A stretch of DNA of 64,000 bases from a virus: IMG/VR virus record IMGVR_UViG_3300050821_024084, positions 37,022 to 101,021 of that record, one strand, 5' to 3'. The notes beneath the pieces are model-generated. The model saw nothing but the letters and a program-made list of their open reading frames with translations. It did not search any database and was not told the DNA's origin. The stretch's first letter is position 1. The number at the start of each line of letters is the position of its first letter. Shown in pieces: positions 18,224 to 22,369 of this stretch. The position numbers and the translations under genes were made by a program.

Positions 18224-19508
18224 AGTAGCAGATCGCGTTATCAAGGAAAAGCTCGAAGGCTATACCCTAGGTGAGCAGGACTATGACGTCCTGGTGCGCG
18301 GGAAGGCGCTCGTGCGGATGCCGGACGGACGTCCGCTGCTGTGCTATCTGCCGGGCGTCCTGAAAGAGACCCAGGAGCGCGAGGGCGTCTACGATATTCT
18401 GCATCCGCTGTACACGCACATGACCAACAACCGGGGCGCGGCCAGCGGGACGCGGAGGATCGTCCGGGGGTCCGGCGAGAAGACCGGCAAGCGCAGCGAT
18501 GCGATGTCGGTGGCCTCGCCGTTCATCGGGGCGGCAGATCCCGGCGGGATCTACCGGTACTGCCGTCTGACAGAATGGACTGGCAGTCATCTCCCGCAGT
18601 GGGAGGCACTGCATCCGTATCTCCGGGAGATCGCGCATCACTTCGAGCAGCAGATCCCGGATCGGCATGCCGTCCAGATGGAGTACGTGCAGCGCACCGA
18701 CCACGCCTGGGTCGTGCCGGGAACGCCGTTCACCACTATCACCGTCAACAACTCGTTCGCGACGGGCGTGCACAAGGACGCCGGGGATCTGGAGACGGGG
18801 TTCTCCGCGCTGTCCTGCCTGCGTCAGGGCGACTACGAGGGCGGCGTCCTGGTGTTTCCCGCGTATCGCATCGGGGTAGACATGCAGGACGGGGATCTGC
18901 TGCTGATGGACGCGCATCAGTGGCACGGCAACACCCGCATGATGTGCGGCTGCGGGGAGCCTATCCAGCGGCGGTTCTGCGAGACGTGCGGGGCTGAGCG
19001 GATCAGCGTGGTGTGCTATTACCGGACTAAGATAGCCGACTGCGGCACCCCGGAAGAGGAACTGGAACGCGCCGTGACGGACACGGAGCGCCGGTCAGGA
19101 CTAGGAGACGAGCTTGATGAGCGGGACACGAACTCAGACCCTGCAAGTGGACTCCCGGGCGCTCCAGCGGTACGTGCAGGGGATGACCTACCAGCAGATA
19201 GCGGACGCGGAGCAGTGCTCCGAGCAGACAGCTCACATCCGGGTCCGCCGGGCGATCCGGAACCAGTACCGGCTGGAAGCCGACGAGCTCCGCGTCGTCG
19301 CGGACGAGCAGCTCAGCTTCCTGACCCGGCAGCTGACCGCGCTGATCCACAAGAAGTCCTACAAGATAGCGCCCAACGGGAAGATCGCCGTTCACCCGGA
19401 GACCGGGGAGCCGCTGGAGGACTACAGCGAGCAGCGGATGACCGCGCTGGCGCTGCTCAAGGTGGGCGAGTCCCGGCGCAAGCTGCTCGGACTCGACCAG
19501 CCAGTTAA
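18198..19508 (+). CDS. TET/JBP-family 2OG-Fe(II) dioxygenase; last ~130 codons overlap TerS
   Basis: TPFTTITVN, HKD, WHGN, RISVVCYYR. Confidence 0.85.
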   Translation: MIRLRLATRVADRVIKEKLEGYTLGEQDYDVLVRGKALVRMPDGRPLLCYLPGVLKETQEREGVYDILHPLYTHMTNNRGAASGTRRIVRGSGEKTGKRSDAMSVASPFIGAADPGGIYRYCRLTEWTGSHLPQWEALHPYLREIAHHFEQQIPDRHAVQMEYVQRTDHAWVVPGTPFTTITVNNSFATGVHKDAGDLETGFSALSCLRQGDYEGGVLVFPAYRIGVDMQDGDLLLMDAHQWHGNTRMMCGCGEPIQRRFCETCGAERISVVCYYRTKIADCGTPEEELERAVTDTERRSGLGDELDERDTNSDPASGLPGAPAVRAGDDLPADSGRGAVLRADSSHPGPPGDPEPVPAGSRRAPRRRGRAAQLPDPAADRADPQEVLQDSAQREDRRSPGDRGAAGGLQRAADDRAGAAQGGRVPAQAARTRPAS

Positions 19509-19641
19509 GCACCGGGTGGAGATCACCGACAAGATGGACTCCGAGATCGAGCGCCTGGCGCAGGATCTCGCTGCGAACGGCGCAGGCGAGCCGGTGCTGC
19601 CGGAGCTACCTGCCGGGGTGACGTCCGGTGACGGAGACTGA
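19117..19641 (+). CDS. terS: Terminase small subunit (HTH)
   Basis: GMTYQQIA HTH, RRKLLGLDQP, AGGAG RBS, directly upstream of TerL. Confidence 0.78.
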   Translation: MSGTRTQTLQVDSRALQRYVQGMTYQQIADAEQCSEQTAHIRVRRAIRNQYRLEADELRVVADEQLSFLTRQLTALIHKKSYKIAPNGKIAVHPETGEPLEDYSEQRMTALALLKVGESRRKLLGLDQPVKHRVEITDKMDSEIERLAQDLAANGAGEPVLPELPAGVTSGDGD

Positions 19642-22369
19642 CGAGCCTCCGGAGCTCCCCCCTAACTGGCGGGATCTCGGTCCTGATGCCAAGCGCGTGC
19701 TGCTGCACAAGCTGCGCGGCATGGCGGTCAGCAAAGGACTGGGCGGACCTCGTGAGTGGCGGTCGAAAGCGCGGCCCAAGCAGCTGCCCCCGAGTGACCC
19801 AGCACATCATCTGCCGGACGGTAACGGGTTCAGATGCGGATGTTCCGGTCCTGATGAGAACTGGAATATCTGGATGTTCATGGCCGGCCGGGGGTGTGTT
19901 GCCGGGCATACGCGCATCTGGCTACCGCTGGAGAACCGGTTCGAGCGGATCGATACGCTAGTCCGTCAGGGAGAGGCCGTCATTGTCCTCTCCCTGACGG
20001 AGAATGGCGCAGAACCACGTCAGACTGACGGGGCTCCTTTCATCGGGGGCGTGGCAGAGCTGTATGATGTGCTGACTTCGGACGGCAACCGCATCACGGT
20101 GACTGACCGGCATCGTTTCCTGACTCCGCAAGGATGGCTGCCACTCGCTCGCGTGCACGTCGGACAGCTTCTTGCCGGAGGCGCTCCCGCTCCTCCGCAG
20201 GAAGCTTCTTCACACCGGTCAGGGTGGCGTGAAGATGCTCGGAATTGGCGGGGAACACGCGAAGATTCTCCGGACGATTATCCGAGGTATCCCCGTTCAC
20301 ATGATCAACTACCTCGTCAGGGGACAGGCAGCGTCCTAGCACCTGCTCCATCACGAGTCGATGCTGCCGGACATACCCGAGATTATTCATGTGAGGATGA
20401 TTTCTCATCTTCACGAGAATGTAACCGTCCTCGTCGACTGCATAGCCTCCCTTCCAGAAGTAGTTATGCTCGGGACGCGCTTTCGCCTCTAGACACGGAA
20501 GTCCGAGTTCTATCAGGCGTGAGCGAACTGTCTCTGCGTTACAGCCGAGGATGGCTGCCATTTCCGTGCATGTCATCTGCTGGGCATGCAAGTCGCGGAG
20601 CTTATCAGTGTCTACAGGCATGCGACTGCCCTGAGACATGCGCTTGCGCGACAGGTCAGAAGCCCTATGCCCTCGCAGCTGCACCCCGGCACGTTGCAGA
20701 GCGCGTCCTACGGTCTGATAACTTGTTCCGGTTGTCTGAGCAAGGTCTTTCAGCGGCTCTCCTTCCTGATAGCGCCGGATCAGGTCCGGAAGAAGATCTG
20801 ACGGTATCTTGGAGTACTCTCGGCTCGGCATGTGAGCATGGTATCACGTGGACGAGAGTACGGTCGGTCCGGTCTGCGGGAACAGGATGGTTTTATGACC
20901 TGACTGTCCCTGGTGCAGAGAATTATGCGGCGGAAGGTCTCTGGCATCACAATTGCGGAAAAACCTGGTCGGGCGCTAACTGGATAATTGAACAGGCGCT
21001 CCGGAACCCGGGAACGATGTGGGCGGTCGTTGCCCCGACATTCCGGGATGTCCGGGTCACGTGCTTCGAAGGCCCCTCCGGGATTCGACGTCTTCTTCAG
21101 CCTGGTGAGGAAGATCAATGGCGCAGGAATGAGCTGCGCCTGGATCTGGTGAATGGCTCCGTTATTTACGGGTATTCGGCTGACCAGCCGGAACGATTGC
21201 GCGGATCTAACCTTTCCGGGGCGTGGGTAGATGAAATGGGGAGTTTTGCGTATGAGGAAACCTGGTATGAGGGACTAGTCCCTGCGCTACGTATCGGGGA
21301 ACATCCCCGTGTCATGGTCACCACGACTCCGCGCCCGACGAAGCTCATCCGGGATCTGTACTCGCGTCGCGACGGCACCGTTCACACCACCACGGCCTCC
21401 ACCTGGGAGAATGCGGCCAACCTGTCGGCTGCCGCCCTCGATGAGCTCAAGCGCCGGTACGAAGGCACCCGGCTGGGCCGTCAGGAGCTTGAAGGCGTCC
21501 TCCTGGAGGATCTGGAAGGCGCGCTGTGGCGGCGCAGCGATATCGACGCTGCGCGAGTCAGGCCGGAGGACGTGCCAGATCTGGCCCGCGTGGTGGTGGC
21601 GATCGACCCGGCGATGAGCGCCGACGAGGATGCTGACGAGACGGGCATCATCGTGTCCGGGGAAGACGGGCGCGGCCACGGGTACGTCCTGGCGGACTGG
21701 TCGATGCAGGGCACGCCCGAGGCATGCATGCGGCGGGCTGTCCAGGCGTACAAGCACTACAACGCGGACTGCGTCGTGGCTGAGGTCAACAACGGCGGTG
21801 ACTTTATCGGCACGGTGCTGCGCACCGTCGATCCGAATCTGCCCTACCATCAGGTGCGGGCCTCGCGCGGGAAGGCGATCCGGGCAGAGCCTGTGTCGTC
21901 ACTGGCGGAGCAGCACCGGCTGCATCACGTGGGGAACTTCCCGGAGCTGGAAGATCAGCTCTGCTCATTCGTCCCGGGAATCGCCGGGCCGTCCCCGGAC
22001 CGGCTTGACGCGCTGGTCTGGTCAGTATTCGAGCTGAAGAGCTTGTCGCAGTCCAGCTGGCTCTCCGCGTACGGAGCCATCCGCTGCACGCAATGCGAGA
22101 TGGCGTTCCGGGGCTCGGCGACGTGCCCGCGCTGCGGAGCAGATGCACCTGCATCGCCTGACGGGGGAAGCTTCTCCCCGGAGGGGGCGGGGGAGGATCG
22201 CAGCATGGGCGGCTGGGCCTCGGTGTACCGGCTGGCCAGGTGCAGCAAGGGACACGTGTACTCTGAGCGGTCCGGTGGCTGCCCGCAGTGCCGGTCCGGC
22301 GGCCTGGACTGGCTGCGCGCGCACGGCAAGCCCGGTGGACAGGCAGGTTCCGGGGCGGTAAGCTCGTAG
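19628..22369 (+). CDS. terL: Terminase large subunit with one intein and C-terminal Zn-finger extension
   Basis: Spliced Walker A GRG/CGKT, Walker B WVDE, TTTP, nuclease AIDPA, SPDRLDA. Confidence 0.95.
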   Translation: MTETDEPPELPPNWRDLGPDAKRVLLHKLRGMAVSKGLGGPREWRSKARPKQLPPSDPAHHLPDGNGFRCGCSGPDENWNIWMFMAGRGCVAGHTRIWLPLENRFERIDTLVRQGEAVIVLSLTENGAEPRQTDGAPFIGGVAELYDVLTSDGNRITVTDRHRFLTPQGWLPLARVHVGQLLAGGAPAPPQEASSHRSGWREDARNWRGTREDSPDDYPRYPRSHDQLPRQGTGSVLAPAPSRVDAAGHTRDYSCEDDFSSSRECNRPRRLHSLPSRSSYARDALSPLDTEVRVLSGVSELSLRYSRGWLPFPCMSSAGHASRGAYQCLQACDCPETCACATGQKPYALAAAPRHVAERVLRSDNLFRLSEQGLSAALLPDSAGSGPEEDLTVSWSTLGSACEHGITWTRVRSVRSAGTGWFYDLTVPGAENYAAEGLWHHNCGKTWSGANWIIEQALRNPGTMWAVVAPTFRDVRVTCFEGPSGIRRLLQPGEEDQWRRNELRLDLVNGSVIYGYSADQPERLRGSNLSGAWVDEMGSFAYEETWYEGLVPALRIGEHPRVMVTTTPRPTKLIRDLYSRRDGTVHTTTASTWENAANLSAAALDELKRRYEGTRLGRQELEGVLLEDLEGALWRRSDIDAARVRPEDVPDLARVVVAIDPAMSADEDADETGIIVSGEDGRGHGYVLADWSMQGTPEACMRRAVQAYKHYNADCVVAEVNNGGDFIGTVLRTVDPNLPYHQVRASRGKAIRAEPVSSLAEQHRLHHVGNFPELEDQLCSFVPGIAGPSPDRLDALVWSVFELKSLSQSSWLSAYGAIRCTQCEMAFRGSATCPRCGADAPASPDGGSFSPEGAGEDRSMGGWASVYRLARCSKGHVYSERSGGCPQCRSGGLDWLRAHGKPGGQAGSGAVSS
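19895..20953 (+). mobile_element. Intein (353 aa) in TerL Walker A
   Basis: Starts CVAGHT, block B VTDRHRF, ends YDLTV...HHN before Cys +1. Confidence 0.92.
20094..20831 (-). CDS. HNH homing endonuclease with HTH repeats, antisense within the intein
   Basis: WKGG...DGY, YVRQHRLVME, EVVDHVNGDTSDNRPENL; own TGnTACCAT leaderless promoter. Confidence 0.9.
   Translation of the reverse strand: MPSREYSKIPSDLLPDLIRRYQEGEPLKDLAQTTGTSYQTVGRALQRAGVQLRGHRASDLSRKRMSQGSRMPVDTDKLRDLHAQQMTCTEMAAILGCNAETVRSRLIELGLPCLEAKARPEHNYFWKGGYAVDEDGYILVKMRNHPHMNNLGYVRQHRLVMEQVLGRCLSPDEVVDHVNGDTSDNRPENLRVFPANSEHLHATLTGVKKLPAEERERLRQEAVRRARERVAAILAESGNDAGQSP

Follow-up and report, generated by a model that had tools for sequence, protein, structure and literature searches.

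The window analyzed here, a 64,000-nt stretch of viral DNA (IMG/VR record IMGVR_UViG_3300050821_024084), contains a gene for a large terminase subunit (TerL) that is interrupted by an intein, and the opposite strand of this intein carries a gene for an HNH endonuclease (Table 1). The TerL assignment follows from Pfam matches to Terminase_6N (E = 1e-19) and Terminase_6C (E = 1.2e-13) and from a PHROG match to the terminase large subunit (E = 1e-31). The intein splits the Walker A loop of the ATPase at GRG/CGKT.

Table 1. Features of the interrupted terminase gene and of the gene opposite to it (window positions).
Feature	Positions	Strand	Basis
TerL precursor ORF, 913 aa including intein	19628..22369	+	ORF list; Terminase_6N, Terminase_6C and PHROG matches
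N-extein end, Gly-Arg-Gly (first half of Walker A)	19886..19894	+	Sequence
Class-1 intein, 353 codons (1059 nt), sense frame without stop	19895..20953	+	Splicing blocks, Pfam Intein_splicing
N-terminal splicing lobe, intein residues 1-103	19895..20203	+	AlphaFold, Foldseek, codon-position variability
Gene for 245-aa tandem-HTH + HNH_3 endonuclease; stop codon 20094-20096	20094..20831	-	Pfam, PHROG, substitution pattern
Doubly constrained zone, intein residues 78-97 opposite HNH C-terminal helix (residues ~216-236)	20126..20185	both	Codon-position conservation
Sense-frame spacer, intein residues 104-313	20204..20833	+	Predicted disordered, without amino-acid constraint
HNH (beta-beta-alpha-metal) nuclease core, residues ~121-207	20211..20471	-	Pfam HNH_3, VIA-align, conserved residues
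Two helix-turn-helix modules, residues ~13-55 and 75-110	20502..20795	-	Pfam HTH_58, Sigma70_r4_2, HTH_23
C-terminal splicing lobe, intein residues 314-353, blocks F and G	20834..20953	+	AlphaFold, conserved motifs
Promoter-like extended -10 element TG-a-TACCAT, ending 6 nt before ATG	20838..20846	-	Conserved hexamer
C-extein start, +1 Cys then Gly-Lys-Thr (second half of Walker A)	20954..20965	+	Sequence

A previous sequence-only reading of this DNA had described the splicing blocks of the intein as normal, and they proved to be intact. The Cys1 codon (19895-19897), block B with Thr70-x-x-His73 (20102-20113) and the terminal His352-Asn353 (20948-20953) are followed by the +1 Cys (20954-20956); Cys1, the block B Thr and His, the block F Asp and the terminal His-Asn are invariant in eight related loci, and the C-lobe retains the conserved series W-T-R-V ... 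F-Y-D-L-T-V-P ... H-N. Pfam Intein_splicing matches the TerL ORF with 42.8 bits (cut-off 35.8), the match being split over residues 102-442. AlphaFold models a HINT fold with a beta-rich N-lobe (pLDDT 77-94) and a C-lobe of pLDDT 65-96. In Foldseek searches, the modeled lobes match the Mtu RecA, Ssp DnaB and Npu DnaB mini-inteins (E = 4e-6), with TM-scores on target of 0.6-0.8 against RecA, DnaB and DnaE mini-inteins. Because the catalytic residues are intact and TerL is essential, the intein probably excises itself, restoring GRG-CGKT.

The segment between the lobes had appeared featureless in the sense frame, and remains so under closer scrutiny: there is no Pfam match at E <= 0.01 in 20201-20836, and residues 104-313 were modeled without secondary structure at pLDDT 26-35. 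Across loci, inteins range from 281 to 401 aa in length and spacers from 180 to 300 residues, the latter with a high content of Ser, Arg, Pro and Gly.

On the minus strand, the HTH-HNH nuclease recognized previously is borne out by profile searches. Its protein matches Pfam HNH_3 at residues 156-196 (E = 3.5e-12; 46.2 bits, cut-off 24.8) and PHROG HNH-endonuclease families (best E = 5e-24), and has homologs in 209 clusters at E <= 1e-10. The HTH region also matches the profile of the tandem-HTH protein 2lvs (E = 1.6e-5), and the model places helices at residues 14-47 and 75-109. Within the nuclease core, D176, N189, N196 and H199 are invariant in 14 sequences and H177 is nearly so; the modeled core comprises strands at 153-155, 174-177 and 190-193 and a helix at 196-204. 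A VIA-align comparison of this core with I-HmuI (1u3e_M) gave a modest Z of 6.9 (rmsd 3.5, 79 residues aligned, 22% identity), and a Foldseek search of the whole HNH model against the PDB returned nothing at E <= 0.001 (best E = 0.4). Neither LAGLIDADG nor Vsr families are among the Pfam matches of the protein. A search for longer forms with the HNH fused in frame had no match at E <= 1e-8, a result of little weight as evidence. In the public annotation this ORF is cut short to 175 aa, and its homologs bear the labels hypothetical protein, transposase or transcriptional regulator.

Both strands are open across the entire 738 nt of the HNH ORF, close to the ~740 nt estimated before. Under other likely genes of the window, the same antisense frame carries 8.8 stops per 245 codons, and none of 341 sliding 245-codon segments in that frame is open; since it is never open over this length elsewhere in the window, the double openness is no chance effect. 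The two strands differ in what is being conserved. In each of 28 pairs compared, HNH nucleotide divergence at antisense position 3 is far above that at the other two positions, as exemplified by the loci L006 and L008 (0.380 at position 3 vs. 0.078 and 0.090 at positions 1 and 2). Along the intein, the most variable codon position in eight loci shifts from sense position 3 in the N-lobe to sense position 2, i.e. antisense position 3, over the middle ~210 codons and back to sense position 3 in the C-lobe. This pile-up of substitutions at antisense third positions indicates that only the HNH frame is protein-constrained in the middle segment: the HNH frame is under purifying selection on its amino-acid sequence.

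The sense frame, for its part, is selected only against stop codons, via the choice among synonymous HNH codons; that selection keeps it stop-free had been proposed in the sequence-only reading. Exact resampling of the synonymous codons with the HNH protein held fixed predicts 4-6 sense stops in the spacer of the present locus, where none is observed; the probability of an open sense frame is 0.07-0.6%, depending on the codon-usage table. For eight related loci, 2.8-5.4 stops are expected and the probability of openness is 0.1-4.7% per locus, and all eight are open. Leu and Val codons preceding an A-starting codon always end in G in these loci. More broadly, the sense frame is open in 56 of 60 non-redundant homologs (mean expectation, 5.6 stops), while four free-standing controls had 9, 14, 2 and 6 stops against expectations of 10.5, 14.3, 4.4 and 6.4, respectively.

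The HNH gene had been placed in the middle of the intein. It does lie antisense within the intein, but it is not confined to the endonuclease slot: its final ~37 codons overlap the N-lobe, including block B, and ~20 of these codons are constrained on both strands. In this doubly constrained zone, all three codon positions are conserved (0.14-0.39, vs. 0.5-0.7 at the free position elsewhere), and the HNH C-terminal helix (residues 212-236) is modeled at pLDDT ~83-85.

Upstream of the HNH start codon (ATG at 20829-20831) lies the hexamer 20838-20843 as part of the arrangement TGaTACCAT-N6-ATG that had been pointed out earlier. TANNNT occurs exactly 6 nt 5′ of the start codon in all eight loci first compared, without a Shine-Dalgarno sequence, and in 32 of 56 non-redundant loci, including the first 18 listed; its background frequency is 0.53% per position. 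Sense residues across the hexamer are variable. Distant relatives carry GGAGG upstream of the HNH start instead of TANNNT. A scan of 19500-21300 for consensus sigma-70 promoters, which demands a -35 hexamer and is uninformative on actinobacterial promoters consisting of a -10 element only, returned no promoter. Given the missing Shine-Dalgarno sequence and the -10-like element 6 nt before the ATG, the HNH mRNA is predicted to be leaderless and to start from its own -10 element. Nuclease expression would thereby be decoupled from late transcription.

TerL relatives were collected with an alignment-based scan of the C-extein, as a scan with the single protein sequence gave no matches. In 78 intein-free relatives, the loop reads as an uninterrupted GRG[W/F/A/L/Y]GK[T/S]; the scan found no intein-free allele more than ~63% identical to the present TerL. 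At the DNA level, the TerL gene had weak partial terminase matches and no close relative among 50,697 deposited phages, and the intein-HNH unit was not found beneath a terminase gene in these genomes; the family is large in metagenomes and proviruses, with more than 599 metagenome matches. The insertion point is constant across the mapped loci (G/xGKT, two residues before Lys), and each of the 40 boundary-mapped loci has Cys, Ser or Thr at +1, which is partly by construction as the boundary search demanded such a residue.

Strawberry-notch-like, SNF2-like and AAA ATPases carry the same unit in their P-loops as well; the family has spread among TerL and other P-loop ATPases. Mobility is indicated by identities that disagree between extein and intein: L006 and L008 share 50% identity in the extein, 79% in the splicing domain and 86% in the HNH. 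GC3 is lowered not only within the intein but also over ~270 to 450 nt of the flanking extein. Intein and HNH have an identical relative frame in all 56 non-redundant intein-resident loci, and the N-lobe overlap recurs in the loci inspected, so that the unit looks like a member of an old family of single origin. This bears on the earlier proposal that an HNH gene invaded a mini-intein backwards: invasion by a free-standing gene stays the proposed origin, but not as a one-off event at this locus, since the family is old and seemingly of single origin. The HNH tree has poor resolution and an uncertain root, and free-standing relatives lie among intein-resident ones. As they do not form one clade, these homologs were rejected as an outgroup for the direction of evolution.

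We interpret the locus, with a probability of roughly 0.75, as a composite selfish element in the Walker A motif of a prophage terminase, in which a splicing intein is combined with an antisense, leaderless HNH gene that drives homing. TerL would be translated straight through the intein, its HINT lobes (residues 1-103 and 314-353) being bridged by the ~210-residue disordered spacer, and the intein would then cut itself out and rejoin the loop. The minus strand of the spacer and of the N-lobe end would serve as a separate tandem-HTH/HNH_3 endonuclease gene with a -10 element of its own and a leaderless transcript. Its product would cut or nick intein-free P-loop alleles, and repair would copy the whole unit. 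That the protein splices, that the -10 element is used and what the nuclease cuts are inferences from the features described above.

Alternatively, the HNH could act on another target or serve another purpose, for example keep out competing phages or aid packaging, and merely ride in a dispensable intein loop with no part in homing. Free-standing HNH relatives interspersed with intein-resident ones in the tree would fit such a lodger, as would the homology of the protein to free-standing phage HNH genes and to HNH domains hidden in phage methylases. We nevertheless consider it unlikely, as intein and HNH keep their relative frame in the 56 non-redundant loci, share the N-lobe overlap where inspected and travel jointly into divergent and non-homologous exteins at a constant P-loop position, which is what would be expected of a nuclease recognizing P-loop DNA. 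The absence of the HNH gene from the 78 related TerL genes argues against a packaging accessory. Still less probable is a function of the spacer itself, for instance as a regulated linker tuning splicing, in which case its openness would owe something to selection other than that against stops. Translation of the spacer in every locus, its length of 180-300 residues and its composition speak for this, but its second codon positions are the most variable of all (0.5-0.7), it has neither a Pfam match nor a predicted structure, and its length varies.

That TerL is made as two polypeptides, trans-spliced by a split intein around a free-standing endonuclease gene, has very little to commend it. An endonuclease gene of free-standing type does sit between the splicing lobes, and the published model of fractured genes predicts intermediates of this kind (Dassa et al. 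2009, PMC2677866), but the endonuclease is oppositely oriented and the sense frame is continuous, with zero stops here and in the 56 non-redundant intein-resident relatives, where 3-11 are expected; we rejected this reading. Likewise rejected, and with next to no probability left to it, is a chance antisense ORF or decaying endonuclease relic, which long spurious antisense ORFs in high-GC genomes and the truncated public call might suggest, but which the strong HNH_3 and PHROG matches, conserved catalytic residues, coding-type substitutions and uniquely open antisense frame contradict.

The preferred reading, a homing element composed of an intein and an antisense HNH gene, has published parallels. 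Antisense LAGLIDADG endonucleases were described in Synechocystis DnaX and a Chloroflexus SpoVR-like protein (Gorbalenya 1998 and Gogarten 2002, as cited in Gosselin, Arsenault and Gogarten), and actinophage inteins, those of TerL among them, harbor antisense endonucleases of the LAGLIDADG or VSR-like type (Gosselin, Arsenault and Gogarten, bioRxiv 10.1101/2025.01.02.630785). As in these inteins, the endonuclease slot of an unbroken intein holds an endonuclease ORF on the opposite strand, the sense frame lacks both stops and structure, phage terminases serve as hosts with a patchy, transfer-like distribution, and invasion by a free-standing endonuclease gene is the proposed origin. The present nuclease differs in being of the tandem-HTH and HNH_3 type, neither LAGLIDADG nor VSR-like (EDxHD), the sole antisense types reported; in the preprint's survey, HNH occurs as an in-frame domain only. 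Its ORF also enters the N-splicing lobe, giving rise to the doubly constrained zone, its start signals are conserved, and its family is large in metagenomes and proviruses. The caution of the sequence-only reading about novelty was well placed, as the layout is published for other nucleases; we found no published report of an antisense HNH within an intein, and the present case adds a variant to the known antisense-endonuclease layout.

Other comparisons concern the nuclease and the insertion site. The ShiLan domain of mycobacteriophage DNA methylases is a hidden, out-of-frame HNH for which leaderless translation was proposed (Arsenault et al. 2025, PMC11855218), and tblastn with the present HNH finds matches inside methylase genes (27% identity over 82% of the query in Thibault-like phages; 49% over the core in ShiLan). 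Both are homologous HNH_3 domains nested in a host gene whose frame stays open, with leaderless translation proposed, but ShiLan lies on the same strand in another frame and lacks a splicing domain, whereas a complete intein surrounds the present HNH, which is antisense. In fractured genes, a free-standing endonuclease gene separates the two halves of a split intein (Dassa et al. 2009); the position of such a gene between N- and C-lobes, its own expression signals and the evolutionary model are shared. There, however, the host is broken by a stop and a start, the GIY-YIG or Vsr-like endonuclease follows the host orientation, and splicing occurs in trans, while the host frame here is continuous. 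I-HmuI of phage group I introns (PDB 1u3e), the best structural match to residues 121-207, likewise attaches separate DNA-binding modules to an HNH_3-type core, but is intron-encoded on the sense strand and has other modules. In the P-loop inteins of mycobacteriophage terminases, which contain in-frame endonucleases, the classic insertion site separates Lys from Thr in GKT (Kelley et al. 2016, PMC5050341). Both these inteins and the present one interrupt Walker A of the TerL ATPase, P-loops being an intein hot spot, yet the present site lies two residues before Lys.

More tentatively, and with more doubt than confidence, the family might represent widespread, single-origin inteins that home to P-loops by means of an independently transcribed antisense endonuclease. 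Because the nuclease would read Walker A DNA, the unit could hop between non-homologous ATPases, i.e. terminase, Strawberry-notch-like helicase, SNF2-like helicase and AAA+ proteins; and as its own leaderless promoter points against the late operon, the nuclease might be expressed in lysogens. If this were true, a prophage could attack, convert or exclude incoming phages with an intein-free terminase.

Gene callers mis-annotate antisense-HNH intein loci, so that metagenomes probably contain hundreds of mis-described terminase and helicase genes. The locus is a clear natural case of two-strand coding, with selection for the encoded protein on one strand and solely against stops on the other, and as this signal is directly legible in synonymous codon choice, it makes a good model for how antisense overlaps are maintained. 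The insertion point in Walker A, constant among unrelated ATPases, suggests how exteins could be switched in a way open to testing. With respect to the evolution of inteins, the finding supports the view that they gain endonucleases through invasion by free-standing endonuclease genes, and HNH_3 joins the nucleases known to invade inteins in reverse orientation.

The window, drawn from a 101-kb IMG/VR provirus, encodes a terminase (TerL) precursor interrupted by an intein, with an HNH endonuclease gene on the opposite strand. ORF calls, Pfam and PHROG matches, and reading of the DNA reproduced exactly the coordinates and description given by the sequence-only reading. The TerL ORF matches PHROG terminase families (E 1e-31), with its Intein_splicing match falling in two pieces across residues 102–442, and the minus-strand ORF matches PHROG HNH-endonuclease families (best E 5e-24). 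The first intein codon, Cys (TGT, 19895–19897), immediately follows Gly-Arg-Gly, and the last intein residues, His-His-Asn, precede Cys-Gly-Lys-Thr, placing the intein inside the Walker A loop. Past its nuclease domain, TerL bears two zinc-ribbon-like Cys-x2-Cys ... Cys-x2-Cys motifs (22100–22366), as does the related locus L002. An upstream ORF (19114–19641; 175 aa) with HTH/sigma-70 region-4-like matches shares 14 nt with the start of TerL and is probably the small terminase subunit.

Positions of the terminase, intein and endonuclease features in the window
Feature	Position	Strand	Details
TerL precursor ORF	19628–22369	+	913 aa; Terminase_6N residues 443–639; Terminase_6C 658–801
Intein	19895–20953	+	placed by reading the DNA
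Block B, Thr70-x-x-His73	20102–20113	+	from sequence
HNH ORF	20094–20831	-	245 aa; HNH_3 (E 3.5e-12); several HTH families

Modelled with AlphaFold from an eight-sequence alignment, the sense-frame intein was folded over residues 1–103 and 314–353 (pLDDT 65–96), and this part matched (E 4e-6) the Mtu RecA, Ssp DnaB and Npu DnaB mini-inteins. The intervening spacer had been described as featureless; indeed, residues 104–313 were modelled without secondary structure (pLDDT 26–35), and a search with the spacer alone returned no Pfam match. The HNH protein (pLDDT 72.7) was predicted to combine a pair of three-helix HTH modules with a beta-beta-alpha core and a long helix at the C-terminus. Its HTH pair gave a profile match to the tandem-HTH protein 2lvs (E 1.6e-5), its core aligned modestly with I-HmuI (Z 6.9, rmsd 3.5, 79 residues), and its catalytic-motif residues were invariant or nearly so among 14 homologues.

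The layout recurs in seven more independent loci found by scanning viral contigs and species-representative genomes (L002/L006, L003, L005, L008, L009, L010 and L011). L005 is from a Kineosporiaceae MAG, and another hit, L007, is a duplicate in truncated form. Every one has an intein between GRG and xGKT of a TerL gene, a stop-free sense frame, and an HNH ORF on the opposite strand in a constant relative frame, such that antisense codon positions 1, 2 and 3 face sense positions 1, 3 and 2, respectively. More than 599 stretches matched in a metagenome scan, and 80 loci were retained from these; removal of truncated and near-duplicate ORFs left 60 non-redundant HNH genes. In the protein database, 209 clusters, mostly unnamed, were homologous to the HNH protein at E ≤ 1e-10.

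The sense frame acquires a stop wherever TT, CT or TC closes an HNH codon and the next codon starts with A. We calculated the exact probability of an open sense frame given the HNH protein of each locus, with synonymous codons taken from three usage tables. Two observed-usage tables gave 2.8–5.4 expected stops per locus and P(open) of 0.1–4.7%; uniform synonymous choice gave 5.6–7.8 stops and lower probabilities. The frame was open in 8/8 loci, where Leu and Val codons ahead of A-starting codons all end in G. As a control, the window's other likely genes held 8.8 stops per 245 codons in the equivalent antisense frame, and none of 341 sliding windows in them contained an open 245-codon stretch. 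In the larger set, for which expectations were derived conservatively from each gene's own codon usage, 56 of 60 non-redundant genes had no opposite-frame stop (mean expected 5.6, median P(open) 0.28%). The four genes with stops are free-standing, and their counts (9, 14, 2 and 6) match expectation (10.5, 14.3, 4.4 and 6.4). Together, the open frames and the free-standing controls demonstrate the proposed selection against sense-frame stops, which rules out both a chance open frame and a split intein.

When the eight HNH genes were aligned by codon, all 28 pairs diverged chiefly at antisense third positions (e.g. nucleotide divergence of 0.078, 0.090 and 0.380 at antisense positions 1, 2 and 3 between L006 and L008). 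Comparing codon-position conservation on each strand across homologues, a check named in the sequence-only reading, revealed that the freest position changes along the intein: sense position 3 in the N-lobe (residues 1–77) and the C-lobe, and sense position 2, i.e. antisense position 3, in the middle ~210 codons (0.5–0.7). Residues 78–97 (20126–20185) were conserved at all three codon positions; here, the last part of the N-lobe lies opposite the HNH protein's conserved C-terminal helix and is thus constrained on both strands. Past this helix, the HNH tail is variable; it faces block B, a region dominated by the sense frame.

The TGnTACCAT-N6-ATG element previously noticed ahead of the HNH gene is present on the minus strand as TGaTACCAT, six bases and ATG, and a Shine-Dalgarno sequence is absent upstream of this start. 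In 8/8 loci first compared, a TANNNT hexamer (TACCAT, TAGTAT, TAGCAT, TACAAT, TATCAT, TAGAAT, TATAGT or TAAGCT) is separated from the start codon by exactly 6 nt, compared with a background of 0.53% of minus-strand positions; the sense-frame residues across the hexamer vary between loci. TANNNT-N6-start is the geometry expected of actinobacterial leaderless mRNAs, as in mycobacterial and Streptomyces promoters. It was found in 32 of 56 loci of the wider set, including the first 18 listed, and many distant loci instead carry GGAGG 5–10 nt upstream of the start. These two different antisense start solutions argue that the HNH gene would be expressed on its own.

Between L006 and L008, the exteins are only 50% identical, the splicing domains 79% and the HNH proteins 86% (45%, 69% and 64% between the window and L009); L005 and L011 displayed the opposite trend (extein 93%, intein 72–79%). 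An uninterrupted GRG[W/F/A/L/Y]GK[T/S] was present in 78 other TerL family members (44–63% identity to the window). The same intein, together with its antisense HNH gene, also occurs in ~1,900-aa Strawberry-notch-like proteins (AAA_34 and Helicase_C_4), a SNF2/ResIII-like helicase (L179), an AAA ATPase (L183) and other P-loop proteins. In six Strawberry-notch-like loci (L153, L156, L164, L169, L172 and L191; opposite-strand ORFs of 1,670–1,900 aa), it splits the P-loop between GDG and TGxGKG. Of 40 loci with mapped boundaries, 36 have the intein inserted two residues ahead of the Walker A lysine; the other four, all Strawberry-notch-like, have it three residues ahead. In an HNH tree of low resolution and unsure root, Strawberry-notch-resident genes formed one clade (support 99), and TerL-resident genes were the majority, with free-standing genes interspersed rather than basal. 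GC3 was low in the window's intein (0.50–0.68) and HNH gene (0.60), at 0.71 in the N-extein (19628–19894), and at 0.66, 0.56 and 0.72 in the first ~300–450 nt of the C-extein (20954–21400), compared with 0.76–0.88 in distal TerL and 0.89 in the small-terminase-like gene. This depression beside the intein may reflect co-conversion with a donor of lower GC content.

A second TerL intein in L005 (265 aa; L005:875–1669, minus strand of the locus), near the C-terminal site between ELEDQM and C, has a featureless middle with a same-strand, +2-frame ORF of 170 codons bearing an HNH-like motif (H-V-H-H-I-D ... N-L ... H), and would on this basis host a hidden out-of-frame HNH. Its L008 counterpart at the equivalent site, between LEDQL and C (254 aa; L008:1061–1822, minus strand of the locus), has a single long alternative-frame stretch, antisense, 176 codons and motif-less; with no recognisable endonuclease in the sequences examined, it may have decayed or be a mini intein. 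In L167 and L172, the HNH frame stops short of the tblastn match end (internal stop or frameshift) and the opposite-strand host frame was open in a first pass; these may be decaying endonucleases. An ORF fragment at L175:2–265 (minus strand) looks like the N-terminal portion of a further intein and adjoins a free-standing HNH homologue.

Actinophage inteins with non-canonical endonucleases, some in TerL, have been reported by Gosselin, Arsenault and Gogarten (bioRxiv 10.1101/2025.01.02.630785), whose listing gives HNH as an in-frame domain only and who credit the first antisense LAGLIDADG cases to Gorbalenya 1998 and Gogarten 2002. Phage methylases contain a hidden HNH, out-of-frame on the same strand rather than antisense, for which leaderless translation was proposed (Arsenault et al. 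2025, PMC11855218); it is homologous to the window's HNH. Split inteins have been described around free-standing endonuclease genes (Dassa et al. 2009), and the P-loop inteins of mycobacteriophage TerL (Kelley et al. 2016) differ from the window's in insertion position. The earlier caution about novelty was apt for antisense endonucleases as such, published for LAGLIDADG and VSR-like types; full-text literature searches turned up no antisense HNH within an intein, and among 121 deposited phage genomes matching the window's HNH, none had the match under a terminase gene. The observation of a terminase intein with an antisense HNH gene is confirmed and its first interpretation supported with refinements; splicing, transcription of the HNH gene and the cleavage target we infer. 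By this literature and database comparison, the intein with an antisense endonuclease is a known architecture, whereas there seems to be no earlier description of its HNH version, of how large that family is, of the selection signal on the two strands or of the conserved start signals.
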